From: Massalongia carnosa
Taxonomy: Eukaryota
Assembly: GCA_965645245.1 (NCBI GenBank)
Contig: OZ287086.1
Coordinates: 1,364,001 to 1,428,000, forward strand
Direction of reading: 5' to 3'
DNA length: 64,000 nt
Translations under genes and position numbers: made by a program
Part shown: one piece after another, positions 11,411-62,344 of the stretch
How the letters are laid out: each line of letters opens with the position of its first letter
Numbering within the stretch: the first letter of the stretch is position 1
The notes under the pieces: generated by a model
The model's database searches: none
Told to the model about the DNA's origin: nothing
Seen by the model: only the letters and a program-made list of their open reading frames with translations

Positions 11411-11695
11411 TGTCGATATTAATAGACCGTGGTTCAAGCCAATTCCCGAAGCTTCGATCTTTCAGATGCTATTTCTTTCTATGCCATATATCTGATTTCT
11501 AATACTCAATGATTTCAAAGCATTGTACCTCGCATGGGTTCCGGATCACTAATGATTTATTAGTAAATAGAAGTGGCTGGAAGATATCTAGATTATCAAA
11601 GAATGTGGCGAAATGGTCTATATAGCTAGCTAGAATTTCCAGTTTAGATAGACAAGGAGAACATCATTTTCCAGATCAATAAGAACGGTCCGACA
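11411..11695 (+). mobile_element. Solo LTR of the Copia family at 56217-61635 (with an internal deletion)
   Basis: TG...CA ends, perfect CCTCC TSD; reverse complement of the 334-bp LTR lacking about 50 bp. Confidence 0.95.
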
Positions 11696-12117
11696 CCTCC
11701 TCTCATCGGATATGTGGTGTTCGCAAAATTACCTTCTGGCTCAGCTGTACTGTAGCGATTTTACTTGTGTTGGGCACTGTAGGAGTTGGAATGACAGGTC
11801 GACTCGCAGAGAAGAGAAAGTCTAATTTAAAACCTATGTCAGGTGTCAATCGTGTGGATATATGTAAAGGATATTTTCACTGACTTGAAAACGATTTAGG
11901 CCGCAGAATACTAGTTCGCATATAATTTCATCTTCAACCTCGTCTCTGATCAGTACCTCGTATCTGTTCAGCATCCCCCCGACCACCTCGCCTCTAGGGT
12001 TAAGATCTTCGTTTTTCGATTCATTTACTTCTACATCTTCAACCATCCCTCTAACGCTATTCGTCTTCTCATCGCCATCTACCTCCTCAACAACATCTTC
12101 CTCTTTAACGTCATACG

Positions 12118-50179: not shown

Positions 50180-50339
50180 AATAACCCAACTGCTCCTGAA
50201 AATCAACCTCGCCGCTGTCGTCGACTTCGTCGCCTACTTCCTCTTCTATTTCAAATGTAACGAAGTCTTTTTGTAGACGAATAGAATAACCTTTACTACA
50301 CTTAATTGTTGTACGTACTTGCGAACAGAAGGGGCGACC

Positions 50340-51488
50340 ATGAACGAAAATCTCGTACCAAGAAGTGCACAGTGCGAAGGTGAGCATAGAAAGGCGAAAG
50401 AGTCTCTGGTAATTAAAATCAAAGAGTATCTTGACCGTGTGGGTAACGTAGGAGACCCGGTAGCGTTGCAAATTTTGCAGGAATCGAGAATTGTGCTGGA
50501 GGCACAAAATCAATTAGACAAAAAATCGCACGACACCACACACGTGGTATCTGCTCTAAATGATATCAAAAGCACTCTACAGAGAATTGAAAGCAGAAAG
50601 GAGATCCCAACAGCAAGAAACTATGCCGCCGTCGCCGCGGCGGGACACCTCAATGAGGGCGGATCTGTACCGGTTCGAAGCACTCTAAACAACGTAAAGA
50701 CGCAGAAAGCGAAGGAACAAACACCAAGTATGATCAAAAGGGCAAGGGAACTCACCATACGAGTGACGAAGAGCGAGGATCGAGAAAGAATAAAGCAAAC
50801 GTCCACAAAGGACTTGGTGGAGGCGCTACAGAAGAGAAATGCAGGAATAATAGGAGTATCGCGTCTCAACAGTGGAGACATTAGGATACACACCGAAACG
50901 GCAGCGATTAAGATGTCTCTGTATGACAATACGGGCTGGGTGCGTGAAGTAGCCGCATCGGCAGCGGTGCAAAGGCGTACCTTTGCCATACAGGTACGTG
51001 GCGCCAGGATGCAACACATCGACGTCACCAATCAGACGAGAGCTATTGAGTACCTACATGCCGTTAATGCACGACTGCATGCGGGACTGAAGATCGTAAA
51101 GGTCGCTTGGTCCAACAAGGCCATCAGAGAAGGAAAAGTGCACTCTACGCTGCACATGGAAGTTGAAACTGCACCGATGGCCAACCAGCTCATCAACGAA
51201 GGTCTGCTCGTAGACTACGAGATCAAGCACTGTGAAAGATTTCACAAAAATAACATACTAGTGCAATGCTTCAACTGCTATAAGTATGGGCATATCAGCA
51301 AATGGTGTAAACACCCCACGGCCTGTGGGCGTTGTGCCGGCGGACATCCTACGCACGAGTGCAATCCCGAGACGACCGGAGCCCACCCCATGTGTGCCAC
51401 GTGCGAGAAGTCTGGTCACCCAGCGTGGTCCCCTGTGTGTGTGGTTCGAGCGAAGGAGAAGAAGAAAGTAAACGACGCAAGGAAATGA
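50340..51488 (+). CDS. LINE ORF1 (gag-like, three CCHC-type knuckles); stop may be premature, tail continues at 62007-62348
   Basis: CFNCYKYGHISKWC, CGRCAGGHPTHEC, CATCEKSGHPAWSPVC; ATG at 50340. Confidence 0.85.
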   Translation: MNENLVPRSAQCEGEHRKAKESLVIKIKEYLDRVGNVGDPVALQILQESRIVLEAQNQLDKKSHDTTHVVSALNDIKSTLQRIESRKEIPTARNYAAVAAAGHLNEGGSVPVRSTLNNVKTQKAKEQTPSMIKRARELTIRVTKSEDRERIKQTSTKDLVEALQKRNAGIIGVSRLNSGDIRIHTETAAIKMSLYDNTGWVREVAASAAVQRRTFAIQVRGARMQHIDVTNQTRAIEYLHAVNARLHAGLKIVKVAWSNKAIREGKVHSTLHMEVETAPMANQLINEGLLVDYEIKHCERFHKNNILVQCFNCYKYGHISKWCKHPTACGRCAGGHPTHECNPETTGAHPMCATCEKSGHPAWSPVCVVRAKEKKKVNDARK

Positions 51489-51643: not shown

Positions 51644-51791
51644 CTAGTTCGTGTCAATCTCGTTATATTGCTACTAAGTATGTTTGGGCTATTGCTCACA
51701 GCCCCCGGCCTCGAGAGGGGGACTCGATAAGGGCCTTGCTGTCTACTAATGTAAGACCCTCTCGCAGGCCTTGGGCTGTGAACAGACTCCC
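51644..51791 (-). repeat. Repeat B2 (148 bp)
   Basis: Appears identical to 52187-52334. Confidence 0.95.
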
Positions 51792-51830
51792 TCTATCTAA
51801 GCGACAGAAGAACTGGAGTGGGTGGGTGGG

Positions 51831-52186
51831 AAAGAAAACGTTGCAAACAGTGCTATCAAAATGCTATGCTTTTTGATTGTCTTGAGATGTGAGATGATGA
51901 GGGATACCGTCTGGGACCTCCTCTTTATATATCTTCTTCCTATTCTCCTTGTCCTACTCTACCATCCCAGTATGCCCCATCAACGCGGCCCATAGCAAGG
52001 CATACACAAATCCGAAACCTAACTATCGTCCGAAGGATCGATGCGGTGCTAAGATCTCTATGCCGTGCTGAGACATCCTTATGGTGCTGAGACATCTATG
52101 CCGTCCGAGAGATCCATGCGGTGCCGAAATCAAAGCGGGAGCTGTCTCGATTAACGACGCACTAGCTCTCAGCATAGCCGAACTAG
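51831..52186 (-). repeat. Repeat A2 (356 bp)
   Basis: Two visible mismatches to 61651-62006. Confidence 0.95.
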
Positions 52187-52334
52187 CTAGTTCGTGTCAA
52201 TCTCGTTATATTGCTACTAAGTATGTTTGGGCTATTGCTCACAGCCCCCGGCCTCGAGAGGGGGACTCGATAAGGGCCTTGCTGTCTACTAATGTAAGAC
52301 CCTCTCGCAGGCCTTGGGCTGTGAACAGACTCCC
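52187..52334 (-). repeat. Repeat B1 (148 bp)
   Basis: Appears identical to 51644-51791. Confidence 0.95.
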
Positions 52335-52370: not shown

Positions 52371-53426
52371 TCAGGACCTAGTGACTGGATTGTGAGGTTC
52401 CGTGGGTAATGTTTGAAGGCGTTTTGAGGCGTTAAGAAGGTAAGTGGGGTGGGTTTGTATGTAAAGCTTGTATGCGTCTGACTTCCATCTTCCTAGCATC
52501 TGAATCTCGTCTTCGGTGAGTCCTGCCCGTCGCGCTGTTGTTGCCGCACCTCTTCTGAACGAGTGGCCAGAGAAATTTCCTATATAGCCCAAGTTCCTTA
52601 AGGTGGATTTCATCGCTGTTGTAATGTAGTCTCGAGTGAAGGACTGACCGTTTTTAAAGAGTGGTGCGGCCGGAGAACTTGGGAATCGCCTATATAAATT
52701 TGTAAGAGAAGCTAGTGCACAAGCAACATCGTTGGTAGCCGCAATTGTCAGTGTTATGCCTCGGCGAAAGGGATCGGTTTTGGAGACTGGTAGAGAGAGC
52801 TGTAGGTGATCTGCTTCGAACCTAATAGATTTTCTGGTGAGGTGCCATTGATCAAAGCTTGGGTCTAGTACATCTTGCGTTGTGTAAGTAAATTCTCCGG
52901 CTCGTAAGAAGCCTGCAAACGCTAAGCAGTACGCCGCATGTAAATTTGCGCCTTTCTCTTTCGTTTGATCAAGACGACTTAGCAATTTGATTAAGATCTC
53001 TCTAGTAATTGGTAACCTTTCACGTTTCTCGGCTTCACCGTTCTTTCGCTTTATGCCAGTAAGGATGCGATCTAACACCGGGTGATGAAATACGTCGAGA
53101 TTACCGAGGCCCATATCTATCTGGCATGATCTTATGCCCGTCAAGTAGCTCTTAATAGTTTTTGGTTGCAGGCGTCGTTCACCCAACGCTGCGATCCACG
53201 AAGACAGCGTCCGGATGTTGGCTGGAAATGGTGGCGCGTTGAGGTTTACCCTACAGTAAAGAACGTATCCCTTTCTTGCCGTTGTGTATAAAGATCTTGT
53301 CTTAGTGGCCAGGCCCCACCAGAGGTATCGTGCTGCGATTTCGTCTAGAGGTACCTCACTGTACCAAGATGGGGGTGGATCGCGTCCTATATTGCTGAGG
53401 GTAGAGCCTGAAACTGAGGGATTTTG
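52371..53426 (-). CDS. Tyrosine recombinase (frame open to 53426, no upstream ATG)
   Basis: GFLRAGEF, SKTD, GHSFRRGAAT, LGRWKSDAYKLY give the R-K-H-R-W-Y catalytic set. Confidence 0.93.
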   Translation of the reverse strand, partial: QNPSVSGSTLSNIGRDPPPSWYSEVPLDEIAARYLWWGLATKTRSLYTTARKGYVLYCRVNLNAPPFPANIRTLSSWIAALGERRLQPKTIKSYLTGIRSCQIDMGLGNLDVFHHPVLDRILTGIKRKNGEAEKRERLPITREILIKLLSRLDQTKEKGANLHAAYCLAFAGFLRAGEFTYTTQDVLDPSFDQWHLTRKSIRFEADHLQLSLPVSKTDPFRRGITLTIAATNDVACALASLTNLYRRFPSSPAAPLFKNGQSFTRDYITTAMKSTLRNLGYIGNFSGHSFRRGAATTARRAGLTEDEIQMLGRWKSDAYKLYIQTHPTYLLNASKRLQTLPTEPHNPVTRS

Positions 53427-55003
53427 TCAGCCAGTTTCTTCAAAAGTCCTCTAGACAAGAGATCAGCAATATAATTTTCTTTGGATGATATCCATCGCGC
53501 TTCTATCTGGATATCATGTAATGCAGCTAGCATTGTAATTGCCCGCAGGGCATGCATTGCTTGGCCTCGTATAGAGGTTTTATTCACTCCTTTCGTGACA
53601 GCGTAGCTATCACAATAGAGGATTAAATGACTACCCTTGCATATAGGTAGCCACTTTTTCATAGCTTGAAGAATTGCTGTCATTTCTTTGACGTTGATAT
53701 GCTTTGCCCTAAGGCGCGTAGTAAAGCGTGTGCTAAAAGCCTGCCGGGCTGCTTGTATATTATGCAAATTTTGATCCTCGCTGAGGATAAAGCCGCCCAT
53801 ACCATATGAGCCGGACGCATCTGTCCATATTCTCATAGTATGTCTAGTACGGTTGAGCAGATGTATGCCATTCCATTTAGGTAGGAAATGATGCCACCAT
53901 AGAAGATCAGCCCTCATGTCCTTGTTAAGATGGATTAGTTTAGAGGTTACGCTTGCCGTAGCATTGAAAAGACGGCGTAGAAAGGCTCTTCCTGGTTTTA
54001 CCACTCTGGCTGCAAAGCATAAGAATCCTAGAAGAGAGTCGAGTTCCTTCCTGGGTATGGCTTTTTTATTCAAGGCTGCCGATACTAGGGTCTTTGCTTT
54101 TAGTAACTTTTCGGAAGGCAAGCGTGCTTCCATGAGCGCGGTATCGATTTCAATGCCGAGGAAATCGCAAGTCGTTCCAGTTCTGTTCTTTTCGAGCTTG
54201 ATTTTCATGCCAAGATCTTTACAAATGTTGTGGAAAACTTGATCAAACTTTTCAGCATCTGGTCCGGTGCTGACTATTATTAAAAAATCATCCAAGTAAT
54301 GAATAGCGTCTTTCCAACCACAGTTGTACAATATCCAGTTGATACCCTTCGCGAACAGATCAAAAAGGAACGGCGACGTTCTCAGCCCAAAGGGTAAGTA
54401 TTTATCCATCCAAAAGGAATCCTGCCACTTGAAACCTAGTAACCACCAATCGCTTTTTGCTACTGGTATGTGGCGAAAAGCGTCCGCAAAGTCTCTTTTA
54501 ATAAGAATACACCCTGGCCCGCGTTGCTCAATCAACCTAATGGCTTCGTCGAAGCTGGTATATTCCAGGGAGCCCCAGTCTTCCGGTATGTGGTCGTTGA
54601 CTGAGCTACTCTCCGGATACGATAGATGATGGATTCGCCGCCAACCACCGTTAGCCTTTGGTACAAGGCCTAATGGGGAACATATAAAGCAAGAAGGAAT
54701 GTTGTTGACTTTCTCCAACCGATTACTAGCTATTTGTTCTTCGAGGTCATTGGTAAGAACTTCCGGTGCCTCATTTGCAGAGGCAAGATTATCGCTAATA
54801 ATGAGTTGATGTGGTCCTGTATAACCAACTTTGGCACCGTAGGTGATGATATCGATAATTGTTTGTGTGTAAGTGCGATCCGGGTGATTGGCCAAATGTT
54901 TCTCCCAGCCTTCTTTCTTCAATGGGCCCGGTGGGATCTTTGTTAGATTGTCCGTCAAGGTGTATGGAAAGGACTCCGCGATGGATAAGAATGGGGCGGT
55001 TAG
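53387..55003 (-). CDS. Reverse transcriptase-RNase H of DIRS/Ngaro type, in frame with gag after one TGA
   Basis: WRRIHHLS, LPFGLRTSP, YLDD, WTDAS, EMTA, YCDS, ADLLSR. Confidence 0.93.
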   Translation of the reverse strand, partial: LTAPFLSIAESFPYTLTDNLTKIPPGPLKKEGWEKHLANHPDRTYTQTIIDIITYGAKVGYTGPHQLIISDNLASANEAPEVLTNDLEEQIASNRLEKVNNIPSCFICSPLGLVPKANGGWRRIHHLSYPESSSVNDHIPEDWGSLEYTSFDEAIRLIEQRGPGCILIKRDFADAFRHIPVAKSDWWLLGFKWQDSFWMDKYLPFGLRTSPFLFDLFAKGINWILYNCGWKDAIHYLDDFLIIVSTGPDAEKFDQVFHNICKDLGMKIKLEKNRTGTTCDFLGIEIDTALMEARLPSEKLLKAKTLVSAALNKKAIPRKELDSLLGFLCFAARVVKPGRAFLRRLFNATASVTSKLIHLNKDMRADLLWWHHFLPKWNGIHLLNRTRHTMRIWTDASGSYGMGGFILSEDQNLHNIQAARQAFSTRFTTRLRAKHINVKEMTAILQAMKKWLPICKGSHLILYCDSYAVTKGVNKTSIRGQAMHALRAITMLAALHDIQIEARWISSKENYIADLLSRGLLKKLADKIPQFQALPSAI

Positions 55004-56158
55004 TCATTGCCTTGATGGGAGAGGCATCGAATTTGGGTTAGAGGGTTGATTTTTTCCATTTGTACAGTCCATCGCCCGATGTTGCTTTCCACATTTCTCA
55101 CACACATGTTGGAATCTACAATATACGGGACAGTCTTTGCCATAGTTGTATTTCTTACAGATAATCTTTTCGCCTGAGGTTTTGAAAGCCGTAGAATTAT
55201 CGTCCGGTTTTGCAAAGTAAGCGGACGGTTTCCGCACAAGATGCCTTTCCAAGGAATGGTCCATTTCTTTCCATCCATCCGGGTTGTCAATCCCGCGAAA
55301 GGCTCGAGATTTGTGGAAATTCAAATGAAAGATGCGAACCGAGTCCCAGGTGTAGAAGGCGTATAATGATAGAAGATGGTCCTGATAAGCCATGAAGGCT
55401 CTCATCAGGTTTATCTGGAGACCGGGGTGTGCAAAGTGTAGTAGTATCATCCAATATACCCCGAGACATCGTATCAAATGAACTATCCCTTTGATATCTT
55501 TTAAGGAGCCATCTTCTTCTCTCGTGGCGATTTCCAGACCTTCTCCGAGTTTGACGTATCTAGAGTTGGTTTGAACTCCGTCGATGTCGGTACATAGCTT
55601 GGTAATGTTGATTGGGTCAAACGTATTCTCGGAGATTTGCTTTATCCATATGGGCTTGATAGTGGGATATTCGTTCATAAGAGAAACAAAACGAGGATCC
55701 ATACCTTCTGTATACAATGAGTTTGGTCGATGCGGTGGAAATGATGTCGGAAATAATAGGGAAGGCTGTTGAGCTGAGGCTACTGGCCCAGGGACCACGT
55801 CTCGGGCACGTGCTTGTTGGGTTTCGATATCCCGCCTAAGACTTACTCTTTCTCTTTCCTCGGCTTCCCTGCGGGACATTTCGCGTTGTGCTCTAAGTTC
55901 AATAATGTCATCAGGGGTGCGAGAACGGGTTTCCGGTATAACAGGCCCTTGTGAGGAGGAATTAAACGCTGAAGATGGAAGAGGAGAAGGTTGAGGATGG
56001 CTTTGAAGGGTTGCCGTGCTGTCTTGTGAGTCGGGTACTTCGACGTCTGGGTTGGAGTTGGCTAGATTTGCCCTAGCTCTAGTTCTAGTACGGGCTAGAG
56101 TGCTGCCTTGTGTGCGGGAGGTAGGCTTGGTGATTCTGTTGGAGATGCGGGTGGCCAT
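55004..56158 (-). CDS. Gag-like ORF1 with C-terminal Cys/His zinc fingers
   Basis: CKKYNYGKDCPVYCRFQH and CEKCGKQHRAMDC; position upstream of RT. Confidence 0.85.
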   Translation of the reverse strand: MATRISNRITKPTSRTQGSTLARTRTRARANLANSNPDVEVPDSQDSTATLQSHPQPSPLPSSAFNSSSQGPVIPETRSRTPDDIIELRAQREMSRREAEERERVSLRRDIETQQARARDVVPGPVASAQQPSLLFPTSFPPHRPNSLYTEGMDPRFVSLMNEYPTIKPIWIKQISENTFDPINITKLCTDIDGVQTNSRYVKLGEGLEIATREEDGSLKDIKGIVHLIRCLGVYWMILLHFAHPGLQINLMRAFMAYQDHLLSLYAFYTWDSVRIFHLNFHKSRAFRGIDNPDGWKEMDHSLERHLVRKPSAYFAKPDDNSTAFKTSGEKIICKKYNYGKDCPVYCRFQHVCEKCGKQHRAMDCTNGKNQPSNPNSMPLPSRQ

Positions 56159-56216
56159 TTTTGGAGGAGAGGGATTTGAATAGAGTAAATTTAAGTGTAG
56201 TGGTTGTATAAATTTG

Positions 56217-59200
56217 TGTCGGACCGTTCTTATTGATCTGGAAAATGATGTTCTCCTTGTCTATCTAAACTGGAAATTCTAGCTAGCTATATAGACCATT
56301 TCGCCACATTCTTTCATAATCTAGATATCTTCCAGCCACTTCTATTTACTAATAGATCATTAGTGATCCGGAACCCATGCGAGGTACAATGCTTTGAAAT
56401 CATTGAGTATTAGAAATCAGATCTATGGCATAGAAAGAAATAGCATCTGAAAGATCGAGGCCTCGGTTATTAGTCCGAAATCACGTGCTTTTCCTTCAAC
56501 AGGATCTTACTTCGGGAATTGGCTTGAACCACGGTCTATTAATATCGACATACCCCCCCAGATTTAGCATACTATGCTGAAGCTGCTTCCTGACCTTGAT
56601 TAGCCAGTATGACTGATATGTCAGTCAAATGCAGCTGTTTGATGAAATCGTCATGTTTCTGACGAGGTAAGACCTTGGTAAATCCGTCGGCAGGCATTTC
56701 CGCTGTGGGCATCCAACTGACGTTTATACGACCAGCTTGAACTTCTTGCCTTAACCAGTGACGATGTATATCCACATGCCGAAGCTTAGTATCTAGCTTC
56801 AACATCTCTTTATCTAGGATTCTGAGGGTCTGGCGATTATCGCACCGAATGTGCAACTTTTCCATGGGATTGAACCGAATGGCTTGAAAAAACCGTTTCC
56901 ACCACATAGCTTCCTTGGCGGTCCGAGACAGGGCTAGCAACTCGGCTTCAGTGCTCGATGTGGTGACCGTGGCTTGTTTAGCTGCTCGCCAGTCTATTGG
57001 TCCACCATACAGCTGAAAAAGGTAACCATCGGAGCTTCTTCGAGTCAACTCATCATCAGCAAACGCTGCATCGCTAGCACACATCAGAATGTCAGTTTTC
57101 TGATGACCGTTATATTCTATAGCCAGGTTTTTAGTCCCATTTAGATAAGCAATAACCCGATCGGCCGCAGACAGATGATCCGGGCACGGGTTTTGTAAGA
57201 ATTGAGCTAATTTTGCAGTTGCAAAAGCTATATCGGGCCGGGATATTACCGCTGCGAAGTTCAATGAACCTACCCGTTGCTGGTACGCATATATACGTTG
57301 ACTGTCTGCTTTTTGCTCGTTTTCATTGGCTGTAGGCACCACTGTCAGTGGTGTTTTCGCGGTTTCCCCGTGCTGATTAAATTTCGCAGCCATTTTGGTA
57401 ATGTATGAGTCCTGACATAACCATATCTTCTTATTTGCTCGGTCTCGGGTAATCCTTATACCGAGAAACCATTTCAATTCCCCTAGAGCATGCATTTCGA
57501 ATCGTTTCAGGAGAGCTTTCTCAAATTCTTGTAATTTGTCCGAATTATGCTTCCTGCATATGACCACAATGTCATCGACATAGAAGAATAGGATAATCCA
57601 CTCATTGGCAAATAGACAGTTGACCCCTGGGACTGGCGCTAGTCCGAGTTCCTCTAGGGCCATGGTTAGGAGCTTATACCATAGAATCGGTGCTTGTTTT
57701 AATCCGTACAGAGCTTTTCTAAGCTTCCAACAGTATCCGGGCTTGTCAAAACCTTCTGGACACTCACAAAAGATTTCCTCATCAATCGGGCTATTTATGA
57801 AAGCACTGACCGCATCATACTGGTAGATATCAAGGTCAAATGCAGCTGAAATAGCCATTAGAGCTCGAAACGTTCTCGCTGCCAATGTTGCAGCATACGT
57901 ATCTTGCTGAGTCATCTGAAGATCTCCTCGTACACATAGACGGGCCTTGAATTTCTCAACATAGCCGTCGGTGTCATGCTTATACTTAAATACCCAGGTG
58001 AGTGGTATCCGGTCCTGTCCCTGAACCTTTTCCACTAGCTCGTACGTACCACGCTTTTCAAGCTCGGTGAGCTCTTTGATGGCCGCTAGCTGGAATTCCT
58101 GCGAAAAACGGTGATGGAGCATCTGCCTCCAATATCGGGGCTCCACCGGGATCTCATCCCGATGGAATTTCTTCAAGGTTCCGACCTGTGGCCGTTCTAG
58201 GCCGACCGAAAACGCTGCATGGAACGGGGTTAACTTGCTGACTGATGCCAGCGCAATTGCATATGCCTGTTTCCTTGATCTAGTGTTCCTGGCAATTGAT
58301 TCATCCGTTGTCTCTACCACCCGAGGCGTCCGTCTCGGCCTAGCCGACTGTCTCGGCTGGCTCGGTCCGTCCTCGGTTGATTGAACACCTGGCATTCCTT
58401 GAACGTCCGGCTCGGAGCTTAAAACCATCACGCTCCGGTGTCTTTTCAGGGGTAGGTAAGTGAGGATTGTTTTCCATATCGATATGAGGAAACATCGTCT
58501 TTTCTGACGTTTCTGTTTCACTAGGTTGATTGGTTGTTTGGTCCAATCTCGGACCTACCTCCTCATCGTCTTGCTCAATCATCACTCCTGCAAAGGATGT
58601 TTCGGGCACTTCCAACACCTGAATCACGTTTTCCACGGTTATGTTTAATAAATGTCCTATATCGAGCTCATTGGGCTCATAAAATCTTGTCTTATCAAAC
58701 ATTACATCCCTGGTCCGGATGACTTTCATATGGCTGGGAATCCATATTCGAAAGATGTTAGTGGAGTCGTACCCCACCAGGTATCCAATAAAAGCCCTTG
58801 GTTCGAGCTTCTCTTTCCTGGGAATCACCTGATTAAGCGGGAACGCTCGACAACCATACGGCTGCAGGTGAGATAGTTTCGGTTTTTCCCCGGTTAATTT
58901 ATCTATTGGTGTTTTCCACCCTAGCATCTTCTTCGGGGTCCGGTTATTTAGATAACCAACCGTTTTGAATATTTCTGGCCACATACTAGCTGGCAAATTT
59001 GCTGCTATGCGCAGGGCCCGCGCTCGGATCACCAGTACCCCCCCAGATCGCTCGGTTTGACCGTTTTGTGCTGGAGTATATGGGGCCGATCTTTCGGTGG
59101 TGATACCTCTCATTTTCATGAACTCGGCGAATTCTAAGCCGAGGGTTCGCTCGTCGTCTGTTCGAAAAAACCGAACGGTCTGATCGTATCTAGTCTTGGT

Positions 59201-61635
59201 CATTTTCAGGAATTCCTTGATCACCCCTAGAGCATCATTTTTTCGAGTATGGGTGTAGACGAAGTCCATACTGGTATAAAAACACCTGAAGTGGCTCACC
59301 CAGTTGTCCCCGTTGTATGCTTCAGTCAGCTGAATAAGGTCATACCCTACTCGACCGAGCGGAAAATTCGCTGGCTCTTCCTGTCCCGAACGTCTCGAGA
59401 TCAGGTGATGGGCTTTGGTCAGCGAGCATGTCTCGCATTGCATCGTATTCGGTGCTGACTCGGGTACTGTTACCTTAACTCCATCTACCCCCTTTTCGAG
59501 GTGAGAAATTGTTTCCGGTCCAGGATGACCGAGCATCTCGTGCCACTCTTTTCCCGTCGCTATCAATTCCGGTTTCGGACTGGTACTGGCCGCAAATGCT
59601 CTATGTGACCTTACCGTTGGTGGGTTGTCTTCTATCACCCAATGGCCCCCTATTTGCTTGGTGCGGCAGAACGTCTTTCCCTTCTGATGCAGATGAGAAT
59701 GTTCGGTGTCCCAGTGAACCCCCTTCTTTGTTAGCTTGCTTAGGCACACCAAATTGGTGAAAAATCCTGAGGATAGCGCCACATCTAGAAGCCTGATTGG
59801 CACCGGCCCATAGGTCCTTGTGCCGTGATATCTACCGTTCCATATCCATCTATGCTATAAACGGTTTTTCCGGCCATGAGCTTGTCATCAGTGTTTGCTG
59901 TACGCGTCAACTGAAACCGCTCCGGATCATTGCATACATGAATGTCTGTTCCGCAATCCAGGGTCCAACAGTTGACCAACCTATGTGGCTCCGGTTCGGA
60001 AGCAACTGCAAACGTTGAAAACGATCTAGGTGGTGCGGCAGGCAAGATCGAGACTGATGATCCGGCAGGCACTATCGAAACTGCAAATGCTGCAGGATCG
60101 GATTTTTCTGAAGACGATTTCTCTTCCCTTCCGACTTTTTCGACTTGTTTTGCGTGCTTATCTCGGACCGACTTGATGATCTTATCTAGCCGATGATTCT
60201 TAGCTAGCTTTTCTTCTATTATTTTCTCAATGCTCTTATCCGGGGTCCACCCCTCTGGCCTCAGGTCCTTGAGCAAATAGTAGCAATCCTTGAAGCGGTG
60301 CTTCTTGCCACATATGCACTTCTTCTCGGAATTTCCTTGGTCCGAGTTAGATCCCTGAGCTGATTTTTGACTCATTGTCGAGTTCGATTTTTCTTGATCT
60401 GATTGGTCAGATCCTTGAAATGTTGCAAATGCCGAATGGGTAGCCCCCTTGCTATCTAGGGCCCTGGCGGTTCGCAAATGATTCCGGAATTCTTCCAGAA
60501 GATCCCTTATCGAGAAATCTTCCTCATTCCGATGAATTTTATACTGTAATATGGCCTCTCTACCGGCCACAAACGAACCGTCCACTGTCCTTAGCGCATT
60601 CAAGAAATCATAAATGCATCTATGTCCCTGAACGTCCGGAATTTTCAGTCTATCCGCTTCTGCATAGACTTTCTCCCATTCCAACAACCAGTGATCCAGT
60701 TGCTGACTCTTGGGGGCACGTTGTAGGTCCTTATATTTCCGAATAACTTCGAGTTCTCGGATCCGGTCCGTCGGTGCAAGCCTCTTCTTTAGAGCTGATA
60801 ACTTCTTATATATCGAGTCCTGTCCCCTGAGATATAACAAATTGGTCCGATCCACGGTGGTCAATATATATGCTTCCAGGTTTTTTAGGGCTTCGGTCTT
60901 CTCCCGATACGTACGCAAGTCTTCTCTATGATCCTCTCTTCGCAATATCAGATCCCGTCGCTGTCCCTCGGTTAAGTCCTCGGATGACACGGCACCTGCT
61001 TTCATGGAAGAGAAGGTAGGGGTAATGGGTCTGATTGGCTCGTCTGGCTCAGGTTTCGCCAGGTCCACATACTGCTCGATTCCACCTCGCTTGGCCATGG
61101 ACTCCACGATAAGGATCCATTCATCCCAGTCACCGGGCTCCTTGAGGACTACCACGGTTTTCTGACTAGAAGCGGGCAAGGTAGAGAAAGACATCTTCTG
61201 TTCGATTGTCCAAAGAAGATGGAAGAAGTAACAATAAAGGTCAATAAGAACTTGGGGATACTGATCGATGAATGCAGCGATTAGGAAGCCGGGCTCATAA
61301 CTGTCGGACCGTTCTTATTGATCTGGAAAATGATGTTCTCCTTGTCTATCTAAACTGGAAATTCTAGCTAGCTATATAGACCATTTCGCCACATTCTTTC
61401 ATAATCTAGATATCTTCCAGCCACTTCTATTTACTAATAGATCATTAGTGATCCGGAACCCATGCGAGGTACAATGCTTTGAAATCATTGAGTATTAGAA
61501 ATCAGATCTATGGCATAGAAAGAAATAGCATCTGAAAGATCGAGGCCTCGGTTATTAGTCCGAAATCACGTGCTTTTCCTTCAACAGGATCTTACTTCGG
61601 GAATTGGCTTGAACCACGGTCTATTAATATCGACA
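56217..61635 (-). mobile_element. Ty1/Copia retrotransposon (Copia-C) inserted in the 5' leader of the YR element
   Basis: 334-bp LTRs 56217-56550 and 61302-61635 with no visible mismatch, ATTTG TSD, PBS GTTATGAGCCC, PPT GGGGGGG. Confidence 0.97.
56572..61194 (-). pseudogene. Copia-C gag-pol with two frameshifts (near 59800 and 58450-58520)
   Basis: CICGKKHRFKDC, TLDCGT, WHEMLGH...CETC, QNGQTER, KARLCVRG, YVDD, ADGFTK. Confidence 0.92.
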
Positions 61636-61650
61636 ATTTGAATTGGGTGA

Positions 61651-62006
61651 AAAGAAAACGTTGCAAACAGTGCTATCAAAATGCTATGCTTTTTGATTGT
61701 CTTGAGATGTGAGATGATGAGGGATACCGTCTGGGACCTCCTCTTTATATATCTTCTTCCTATTCTCCTTGTCCTACTCTACCATCCCAGTATGCCCCAT
61801 CAACGCGGCCCATAGCAAGGCATACACAAATCCGAAACCTAACTGTCGTCCGAAGGATCGATGCGGTGCTAAGATCTCTATGCCGGGCTGAGACATCCTT
61901 ATGGTGCTGAGACATCTATGCCGTCCGAGAGATCCATGCGGTGCCGAAATCAAAGCGGGAGCTGTCTCGATTAACGACGCACTAGCTCTCAGCATAGCCG
62001 AACTAG
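61651..62006 (-). repeat. Repeat A1 (356 bp)
   Basis: Matches 51831-52186; contains a TATA-like motif and ~18-20 bp internal subrepeats. Confidence 0.95.
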
Positions 62007-62344
62007 ATAACCCAATCCGCCACACAGGCGAATCAGCCGAGGAGCCTACCAGGTGCCGAGACCGGAATCACATGGAAGGACATCGAGATCATGAACCCGG
62101 CAAACAGAATAAGGGCGATGGCGAAGCCCACTCTGGGTAGACCCCCCAACGCTGTCAATAGTGCCCCCTGCCCCCCTACTACCCTATCTCCTCCCATCCC
62201 TCTCCCATCCAAACCAGCAGTCACCCTAACCGCTCCGCCCCCCACCCACCATCGCACCGCGACCGCTCCGCAAGGGGCCCATTTGGAAGTACAAATCCCT
62301 ACCCAATCGAAAACGACTCCCTCGAGAGACATGGATGAAGCTTT

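Follow-up and report, generated by a model that had tools for sequence, protein, structure and literature searches.

A shared in-frame stop codon between gag and reverse transcriptase of a fungal Ngaro-type retrotransposon, and its probable readthrough

Moloney murine leukaemia virus (MLV), a gammaretrovirus, makes its Gag-Pol protein by readthrough of a UAG between gag and pol, with a pseudoknot downstream. The subject of this report is a gag stop codon in a retroelement of a different kind, a tyrosine-recombinase retrotransposon of the Ngaro type, which lies on the minus strand of a 64,000-nucleotide stretch of DNA from Massalongia carnosa (GenBank assembly GCA_965645245.1, contig OZ287086.1, positions 1,364,001 to 1,428,000). 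We call that whole stretch the window and count positions from its first letter. Between the gag-like open reading frame (ORF) of the element and the ORF for its reverse transcriptase (RT) and RNase H (RH) there is one in-frame TGA, followed by CTA. As in MLV, a fusion protein would be reached by way of one in-frame stop, but MLV has its pseudoknot and here no downstream structure was found. We argue that the gag stop is probably read through by virtue of the nucleotides around it, yielding Gag plus a minor amount of a Gag-RT/RH fusion.

The preliminary description of this DNA took UGA-CUA for a known readthrough context, and this is documented for Ustilago maydis, where UGA followed by CUA is reported to be sufficient for efficient readthrough; UGA-CU is reported to function in human cells as well (PMC4207609). 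The peroxisomal isoforms of U. maydis and animals resemble the present case in having UGA plus CUA and in requiring no downstream structure, but they are products of cellular genes that gain short C-terminal extensions, whereas here a whole enzyme of 538 residues would be gained (PMC4207609). Among the Ty3/gypsy elements of fission yeasts, Tj1, Tosmo1-3 and Tcry1 are reported to keep GAA TGA CT(A/G) between gag and pol. The stop of Tj1 is reported to be essential for transposition, and the TGA of these elements has been interpreted as a site of programmed readthrough that sets the ratio of Gag to Gag-Pol (PMC10085805). They share with the element in the window a fungal host, an in-frame TGA-CT and two A residues just ahead of the stop (GAA in theirs, CAA here). 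They differ in being of the long terminal repeat (LTR) type, with a protease, a DDE integrase and a fusion protein that is cleaved, whereas the element in the window has a putative tyrosine recombinase (YR) and no protease. Moreover, among the Ngaro relatives described below, the codon ahead of the stop varies, and the stop itself can also be TAA or TAG. Tca2 of Candida albicans is again a fungal retroelement with gag-UGA-pol in one frame, but it is a Ty1/copia element and has a predicted pseudoknot (PMC2194720). As for Ngaro elements themselves, those described have the same A1-[ORFs]-B1A2B2 plan as the element in the window and the same order of gag-like, RT/RH and YR ORFs; the available passages of these accounts make no mention of an in-frame gag stop or of readthrough (PMC8547959, PMC3783388). 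Among the papers searched, none links Ngaro with readthrough, and the survey of Ngaro elements in fungi uses neither of the words stop and readthrough, though an earlier mention in Goodwin and Poulter 2004 or in Poulter's reviews is possible.

At the junction, the minus strand of the window reads ...TCA AGG CAA TGA CTA ACC GCC.... The candidate readthrough site, AGG CAA TGA CTA ACC, occupies 54998..55012, with the TGA at 55006..55004. It joins two stop-to-stop ORFs, 56260..55004 (418 aa) and 55003..53387 (538 aa), that lie in one frame with this one stop between them. The first holds the gag-like ORF1 (55007..56158, minus strand), 384 aa from its first ATG at 56158. It matches protein cluster P0040 at 100%, and a Pfam search found no family in it. 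Its C-terminus carries a CCHC-like zinc knuckle (CEKCGKQHRAMDC) 19 residues ahead of the stop, and its nearest named relatives are gene models of lichen-forming ascomycetes. The second is the RT/RH ORF (53387..55003, minus strand), 538 codons in the frame of gag, which matches RVT_1 at residues 153-286 (2.9e-14) and RT_RNaseH at residues 388-476 (1.4e-7). Its first ATG is codon 199 (0-based index 198), which according to the family alignment lies past the invariant residues at the N-terminus and past the finger region GGWRRIHHLS. The preliminary description had read gag as ending in AGG CAA TGA, followed by CTA ACC and an open run in the same frame into RT-RH, with no ATG ahead of the RT core. 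All of this is seen in the sequence, the first ATG coming only after essential RT motifs. All three ORFs of this copy are otherwise intact.

The stop recurs in other copies and in relatives. Six sequencing runs with four coded organism labels contain at least 0.56 of the sampled words (a freshwater metagenome run, 0.32), and the contigs of four runs (X4, X5, X6 and X7) were compared with the window, X6 having no cover at the junction. None of the 17 runs listed was of RNA. Contigs from X4 (record 5, 55001-55140) and X5 (record 11, 54815-55085), which come from two other coded organisms, span the stop with 0 differences. A contig from X7, about 4.7% diverged, crosses the junction, and the indels there are in-frame only (9 nt and 3 nt). 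The Gag proteins tell the same story at their C-terminal ends. The Gag cluster has 18 sequences at 90% identity or more; among the members listed, 11 of 15 are exactly 384 aa long, and one member of that length occurs on 20 contigs. Fifteen of 16 aligned Gag proteins end at the same column, and the same end column is found in P0041/P0061 (42% identity, ...GRRE) and P0042 (40%, ...SRRE). Among 1.84 billion representatives, a HMMER search turned up 387 homologues of Gag. Of these, none of the best 150 exceeds 529 aa, so none of the 150 is a gag-RT fusion, and many of them end within a few residues of the end of the query. A scan of metagenome contigs with the Gag alignment gave 81 pattern matches and 0 confirmed relatives. 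The alignment of other copies and relatives that the preliminary description proposed therefore turns up a stop, not a sense codon, in the X4 and X5 contigs and in Gag proteins both near and distant. As a separate observation on run X4, the region 52371-56216 is covered there by 940 short contigs with reported depths of 25,000 each, so that in X4 the family is either fragmented or extremely abundant. A single contig of this run skips 107 nt within gag (55598-55704).

Relatives were also collected by way of RT. A metagenome scan with the RT alignment gave 80 loci, to which were added 4 loci from bacterial metagenome-assembled genomes (MAGs), so that the 84 fetched loci and the window make a census of 85 sequences with an RT match. 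The minimum length for an upstream ORF was 150 aa, lowered to 40 aa for ORFs cut by the end of the contig. In 39 of the 85 there is an upstream ORF in the same frame, exactly one stop and then the RT ORF; 7 others run off the end of the contig. Loci less than 80% identical over the 93-nt junction were assigned to different lineages, and by this rule the 39 fall into 26 groups. Since the layout of gag, stop and RT recurs in 26 distinct lineages, it is more than chance. In 23 of the 26 the stop comes 4-19 residues after the final Cys of gag. A gag ORF was recognised in 59 loci and lies in frame 0 in 45 of them, 39 having a single stop and 6 having additional stops. A quick maximum-likelihood tree built from 29 RT sequences shows at least 6 changes in the identity of the stop (5 of the changes forced by well-supported branches), and the layout persists. 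Examples of change are TGA versus TAA in the close pair L019/L037 and CCA versus CTA in L052/L059. The four MAG loci (L081-L084, on contigs labelled Bacteroidetes and Kribbellaceae) carry a fungal-type retroelement and are likely fungal contaminants that arrived through binning.

The nucleotide context of the stop was counted on the 26 group representatives and compared with the background at first codon positions in 25,358 codons of the same ORFs. The stop is TGA in 18 lineages, TAA in 5 and TAG in 3. The next nucleotide is C in 22 of the 26 (background 0.280), the next codon is CTN in 15 (background 0.078), and it is CTA in 8 (background 0.014). The stops that end RT served as a control, and C comes next in 0 of 17. 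The TGA CTA of the window has the 3' context associated with weak termination (C at +4, CU(A)). Behind the stop, 32-179 codons of open frame precede the position aligned with the first invariant RT residue. In the window and in four loci (L001, L003, L009 and L010) the motif [IV][SA]E[SG]FPY occurs within this stretch, 6-20 codons past the stop, and it is kept with synonymous changes (ATC/ATA, GAG/GAA, TTT/TTC, TCG/TCA/TCT).

Taken together, the shared stop, the bias in its context, the open and conserved frame behind it and the lack of a conserved intron support the proposal of the preliminary description that the element makes Gag-RT by programmed readthrough, and we consider it probable that the context of the gag stop drives the process. 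According to this model, most ribosomes on the genomic RNA would terminate at the gag UGA and release Gag alone. A minority would decode the UGA by means of a near-cognate tRNA, since termination is weak in the context UGA-CUA; we infer this step, its efficiency and the amino acid inserted from the layout and context described above. Ribosomes that had passed the stop would stay in frame and produce a Gag-RT/RNase H fusion, which would probably remain uncleaved, since the element has no protease. A single RNA would thereby give a high ratio of Gag to RT. Such readthrough is recoding of a known kind rather than a novel mechanism, and the trait seems to be old in one clade of Ngaro-type elements from fungi.

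Several observations weigh against readthrough. The gag-UGA-pol junction of Tca2, taken alone, is reported to have given no readthrough in a Saccharomyces cerevisiae reporter (PMC2194720), so an in-frame stop is not proof of readthrough. The binomial tails calculated for the context counts (about 8e-11 to 3e-9) overstate significance and independence, since the 26 lineages are related to one another. The stops that end YR are followed by C in 6 of 11 cases, though by CTN in only 1 of 11. The simple layout of gag, stop and RT is lacking in half of the sequences that allowed a verdict (39 of 78). In 20 of those 39 a zinc-knuckle gag ORF could be recognised, its end 10-290 nt away from where the open RT frame begins; it lies in frame 0 with extra stops (6 loci), in frame +1 (5) or in frame -1 (9). 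These 20 look like decayed or indel-bearing copies; in 15 of them C is next to the gag stop. The linker behind the stop, though kept open, is only weakly constrained: in pairs with enough differences for a ratio of nonsynonymous to synonymous change (pN/pS) to be computed, the linker gave 0.51-0.90, the C-terminus of Gag 0.18-0.41, and the RT core, in cleanly aligned pairs, 0.08-0.27. The linker range also counts, with the conserved motif, among the signs of protein coding behind the stop. Finally, the leader of this copy is occupied by a Copia element, and the copy may be silent.

A downstream RNA structure was also sought. The preliminary description had looked to a fold of the downstream sequence, and no stable structure was found in the window, where z = +1.29 and 183 of 200 shuffles fold at least as well. 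Across the 26 lineages the mean z of the family is -0.28, against -0.11 for controls (p = 0.30). With no downstream structure, readthrough would depend on the short context and nothing else. Structure-stimulated readthrough of the MLV type was considered and set aside, as no stable fold was found behind the stop in the window and the 26 lineages show no excess over controls. The most negative z values, about -2.4 to -2.5, were those of L011, L019 and L033, of which two have TGA-TAT and one TAA-CTA. The sample is small, but it hints that structure may make up for a poor context.

Perhaps translation simply ends at the gag stop and RT/RH is made apart, through reinitiation, through a start at a non-AUG codon or a downstream AUG, or through an internal promoter and a sub-genomic RNA. 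We think this unlikely, though part of the evidence speaks for it. An in-frame ATG is present behind the stop in 17 of the 26 lineages, a count that must be added to the points against readthrough, and in one clade (L009, L010) the ATG lies 12 codons past the stop, just ahead of the conserved motif. Ten of the 21 RT-only proteins that were fetched begin MP(S/T/A/N)SL...FPY or ML-SL...FPY; the gene caller used by the sources of these proteins also writes TTG starts as M, and P0062 starts at a TTG of the window. Tca2, too, is reported to have a minor promoter in its gag-pol junction (PMC2194720). For the window, however, separate initiation fails, there being no ATG before RT codon 199, and in 9 of the 26 lineages, the window included, the stretch from the stop to the first invariant RT residue contains no ATG. 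A separately initiated RT would have no need to share the frame of gag, yet gag stands in frame 0 in most of the loci where it was recognised, and the excess of CTN behind the stop would be left unexplained. A bypass of the stop that needs more than local context, such as distant RNA elements or host factors, was concluded for Tca2 (PMC2194720), and the absence of local structure here would fit such a bypass. We hold it to be improbable, for the strong bias toward C and CTN directly after the stop points to local context as the selected feature, and UGA-CU(A) is reported to work alone in U. maydis (PMC4207609).

The two remaining explanations do away with the stop, either in the RNA or in the ancestry of the copy. 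An in-frame intron might remove it, so that Gag-RT would be translated from spliced RNA, and the window does contain a candidate of 132 nt, in frame, with a donor GTGTGT at 55105, a branch-like TGACTAAC that resembles a fungal branch site, and an acceptor AG ending at 54974. But the acceptor is GAG rather than YAG, the donor is formed by the codons for His-Val-Cys in the knuckle, and splicing would remove both the zinc knuckle and the SIAE residues, which are conserved as protein, with synonymous changes, in relatives. In-frame candidates of the form GTRNGY...CTRAY...AG occur across the stop in 3 of the 26 lineages, compared with 60 of 991 control positions. Thus no conserved intron spans the stop among the 26 lineages, and the spliced mRNA that the preliminary description had allowed for is a decidedly improbable source of Gag-RT. 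It is more improbable still, to the point of being hardly credible, that the TGA arose privately or recently, as a nonsense mutation in a dead copy whose family normally has a single gag-RT ORF. Such ORFs do exist: relatives with an uninterrupted gag-RT ORF include P0008, P0011, P0012 and several NCBI fungal gene models. In three further long gag-RT proteins from public assemblies (P0001, P0007 and P0018), Trp-Leu stands next to the aligned position of the stop, the Trp being either TGG or a TGA read by a gene caller using code 4; P0007 and P0018 appear heavily mutated from C to T and from G to A, and are still open. The copy in the window, moreover, carries a Copia insertion. Yet the same stop is common to other copies, to other coded organisms and to families at 40% Gag identity, and the ORFs of this copy show no other damage. 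The preliminary description had named a sense codon in other copies as a refutation; the stop was found in copies and relatives alike, but some relatives do run uninterrupted from gag into RT. The stop is therefore not obligatory across relatives, and their uninterrupted ORFs imply that a Gag-RT fusion is a viable product.

The element itself is a fungal Ngaro-type tyrosine-recombinase retrotransposon. Self-comparison and the ORFs give the order A1-[Copia]-gag-RT/RH-YR-B1-A2-B2 on the minus strand. By definition Ngaro elements have split direct repeats arranged as A1-[ORFs]-B1A2B2 (PMC8547959), and both pairs of repeats are present here, all on the minus strand. The A1 repeat, the 5' member of its pair (61644..62009), is 98.6% identical over 367 bp to the A2 repeat (51823..52189), and both copies terminate at ...CGTTTTCTTT. 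The B1 repeat (52187..52334, 148 bp) is 100% identical to the B2 repeat (51644..51791), which forms the 3' end of the element. The RT plus RNase H ORF expected of Ngaro is present too, with both Pfam matches above the curated cut-offs. A DIRS1-like identity was considered and ruled out: self-BLAST found no inverted match inside the element, hence no inverted terminal repeats, and Pfam found no methyltransferase family in its three ORFs.

The third of these ORFs, which probably encodes the tyrosine recombinase, extends over 52371..53426 (minus strand; 351 codons from stop to stop). Its match to the Pfam family Phage_integrase (E 4.6e-4, 20.4 bits) falls below the 27.1-bit cut-off, and the translation shows the motifs HSFRRGAAT (HxxR) and RWKSDAYKLY (Tyr). 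Relatives carry PF00589, and a homologous downstream ORF is found in 20 of the 26 lineages. In the window the YR ORF is in the -1 frame relative to RT/RH, with an overlap of 37 nt (53387-53426 region). The same -1 frame is found in 19 of the 20 related lineages with a YR match, with overlaps of 37-1072 nt and usually no early ATG. The preliminary description stated that ORFs in DIRS/Ngaro elements are usually described as overlapping in different frames; a published account says so of YR and RT/RH (PMC6681497), and no such statement was found for gag and RT. No classical or shared slippery heptamer was found in the RT/YR overlap, either in the window or in the related lineages. The -1 position of YR could reflect a -1 frameshift, or it could be a frame inherited by descent. 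It is a tentative and rather doubtful extension of the readthrough model that an old clade of Ngaro-type elements may as a whole make all three proteins from one RNA by two recodings, with no protease: readthrough of any of the three stops followed by CUN to give Gag-RT/RH, and then a -1 shift to add the recombinase.

The Copia-type LTR retrotransposon (56217..61635, minus strand), which sits inside the Ngaro element's 5' leader, is outside the readthrough unit. Its LTRs (61302-61635 and 56217-56550) are 334 bp each, have the ends TG..CA and are 100% identical. The insertion is very recent. Internal ORFs on the minus strand are found from 61314 to 56572. The element is flanked by CAAAT, a target duplication of 5 bp (61640..61636 and 56216..56212), and the insertion is about 60 nt upstream of the gag ATG. 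Elsewhere in the window, 11411-11696 is a fragment 98% identical to the Copia LTR on the opposite strand, probably a solo or truncated LTR. Adjoining the 3' end of the Ngaro element there is a 403-codon open frame on the plus strand (50277-51488) that ends in two CCHC-type knuckles (CFNCYKYGHISKWC...) and resembles the gag of another retroelement.

The expression of RT by tyrosine-recombinase retrotransposons has hardly been studied. If the gag stop is read through as proposed, then in annotation gag and RT would be joined as one recoded gene and such a copy would not be scored as broken. The many natural variants of the junction would also offer material for studying readthrough in fungi that depends on context only. 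For the elements themselves, it would mean that a stop with CUN behind it, a signal both minimal and portable, sets the ratio of Gag to RT across a widespread fungal clade, the same control as in unrelated fungal LTR elements.

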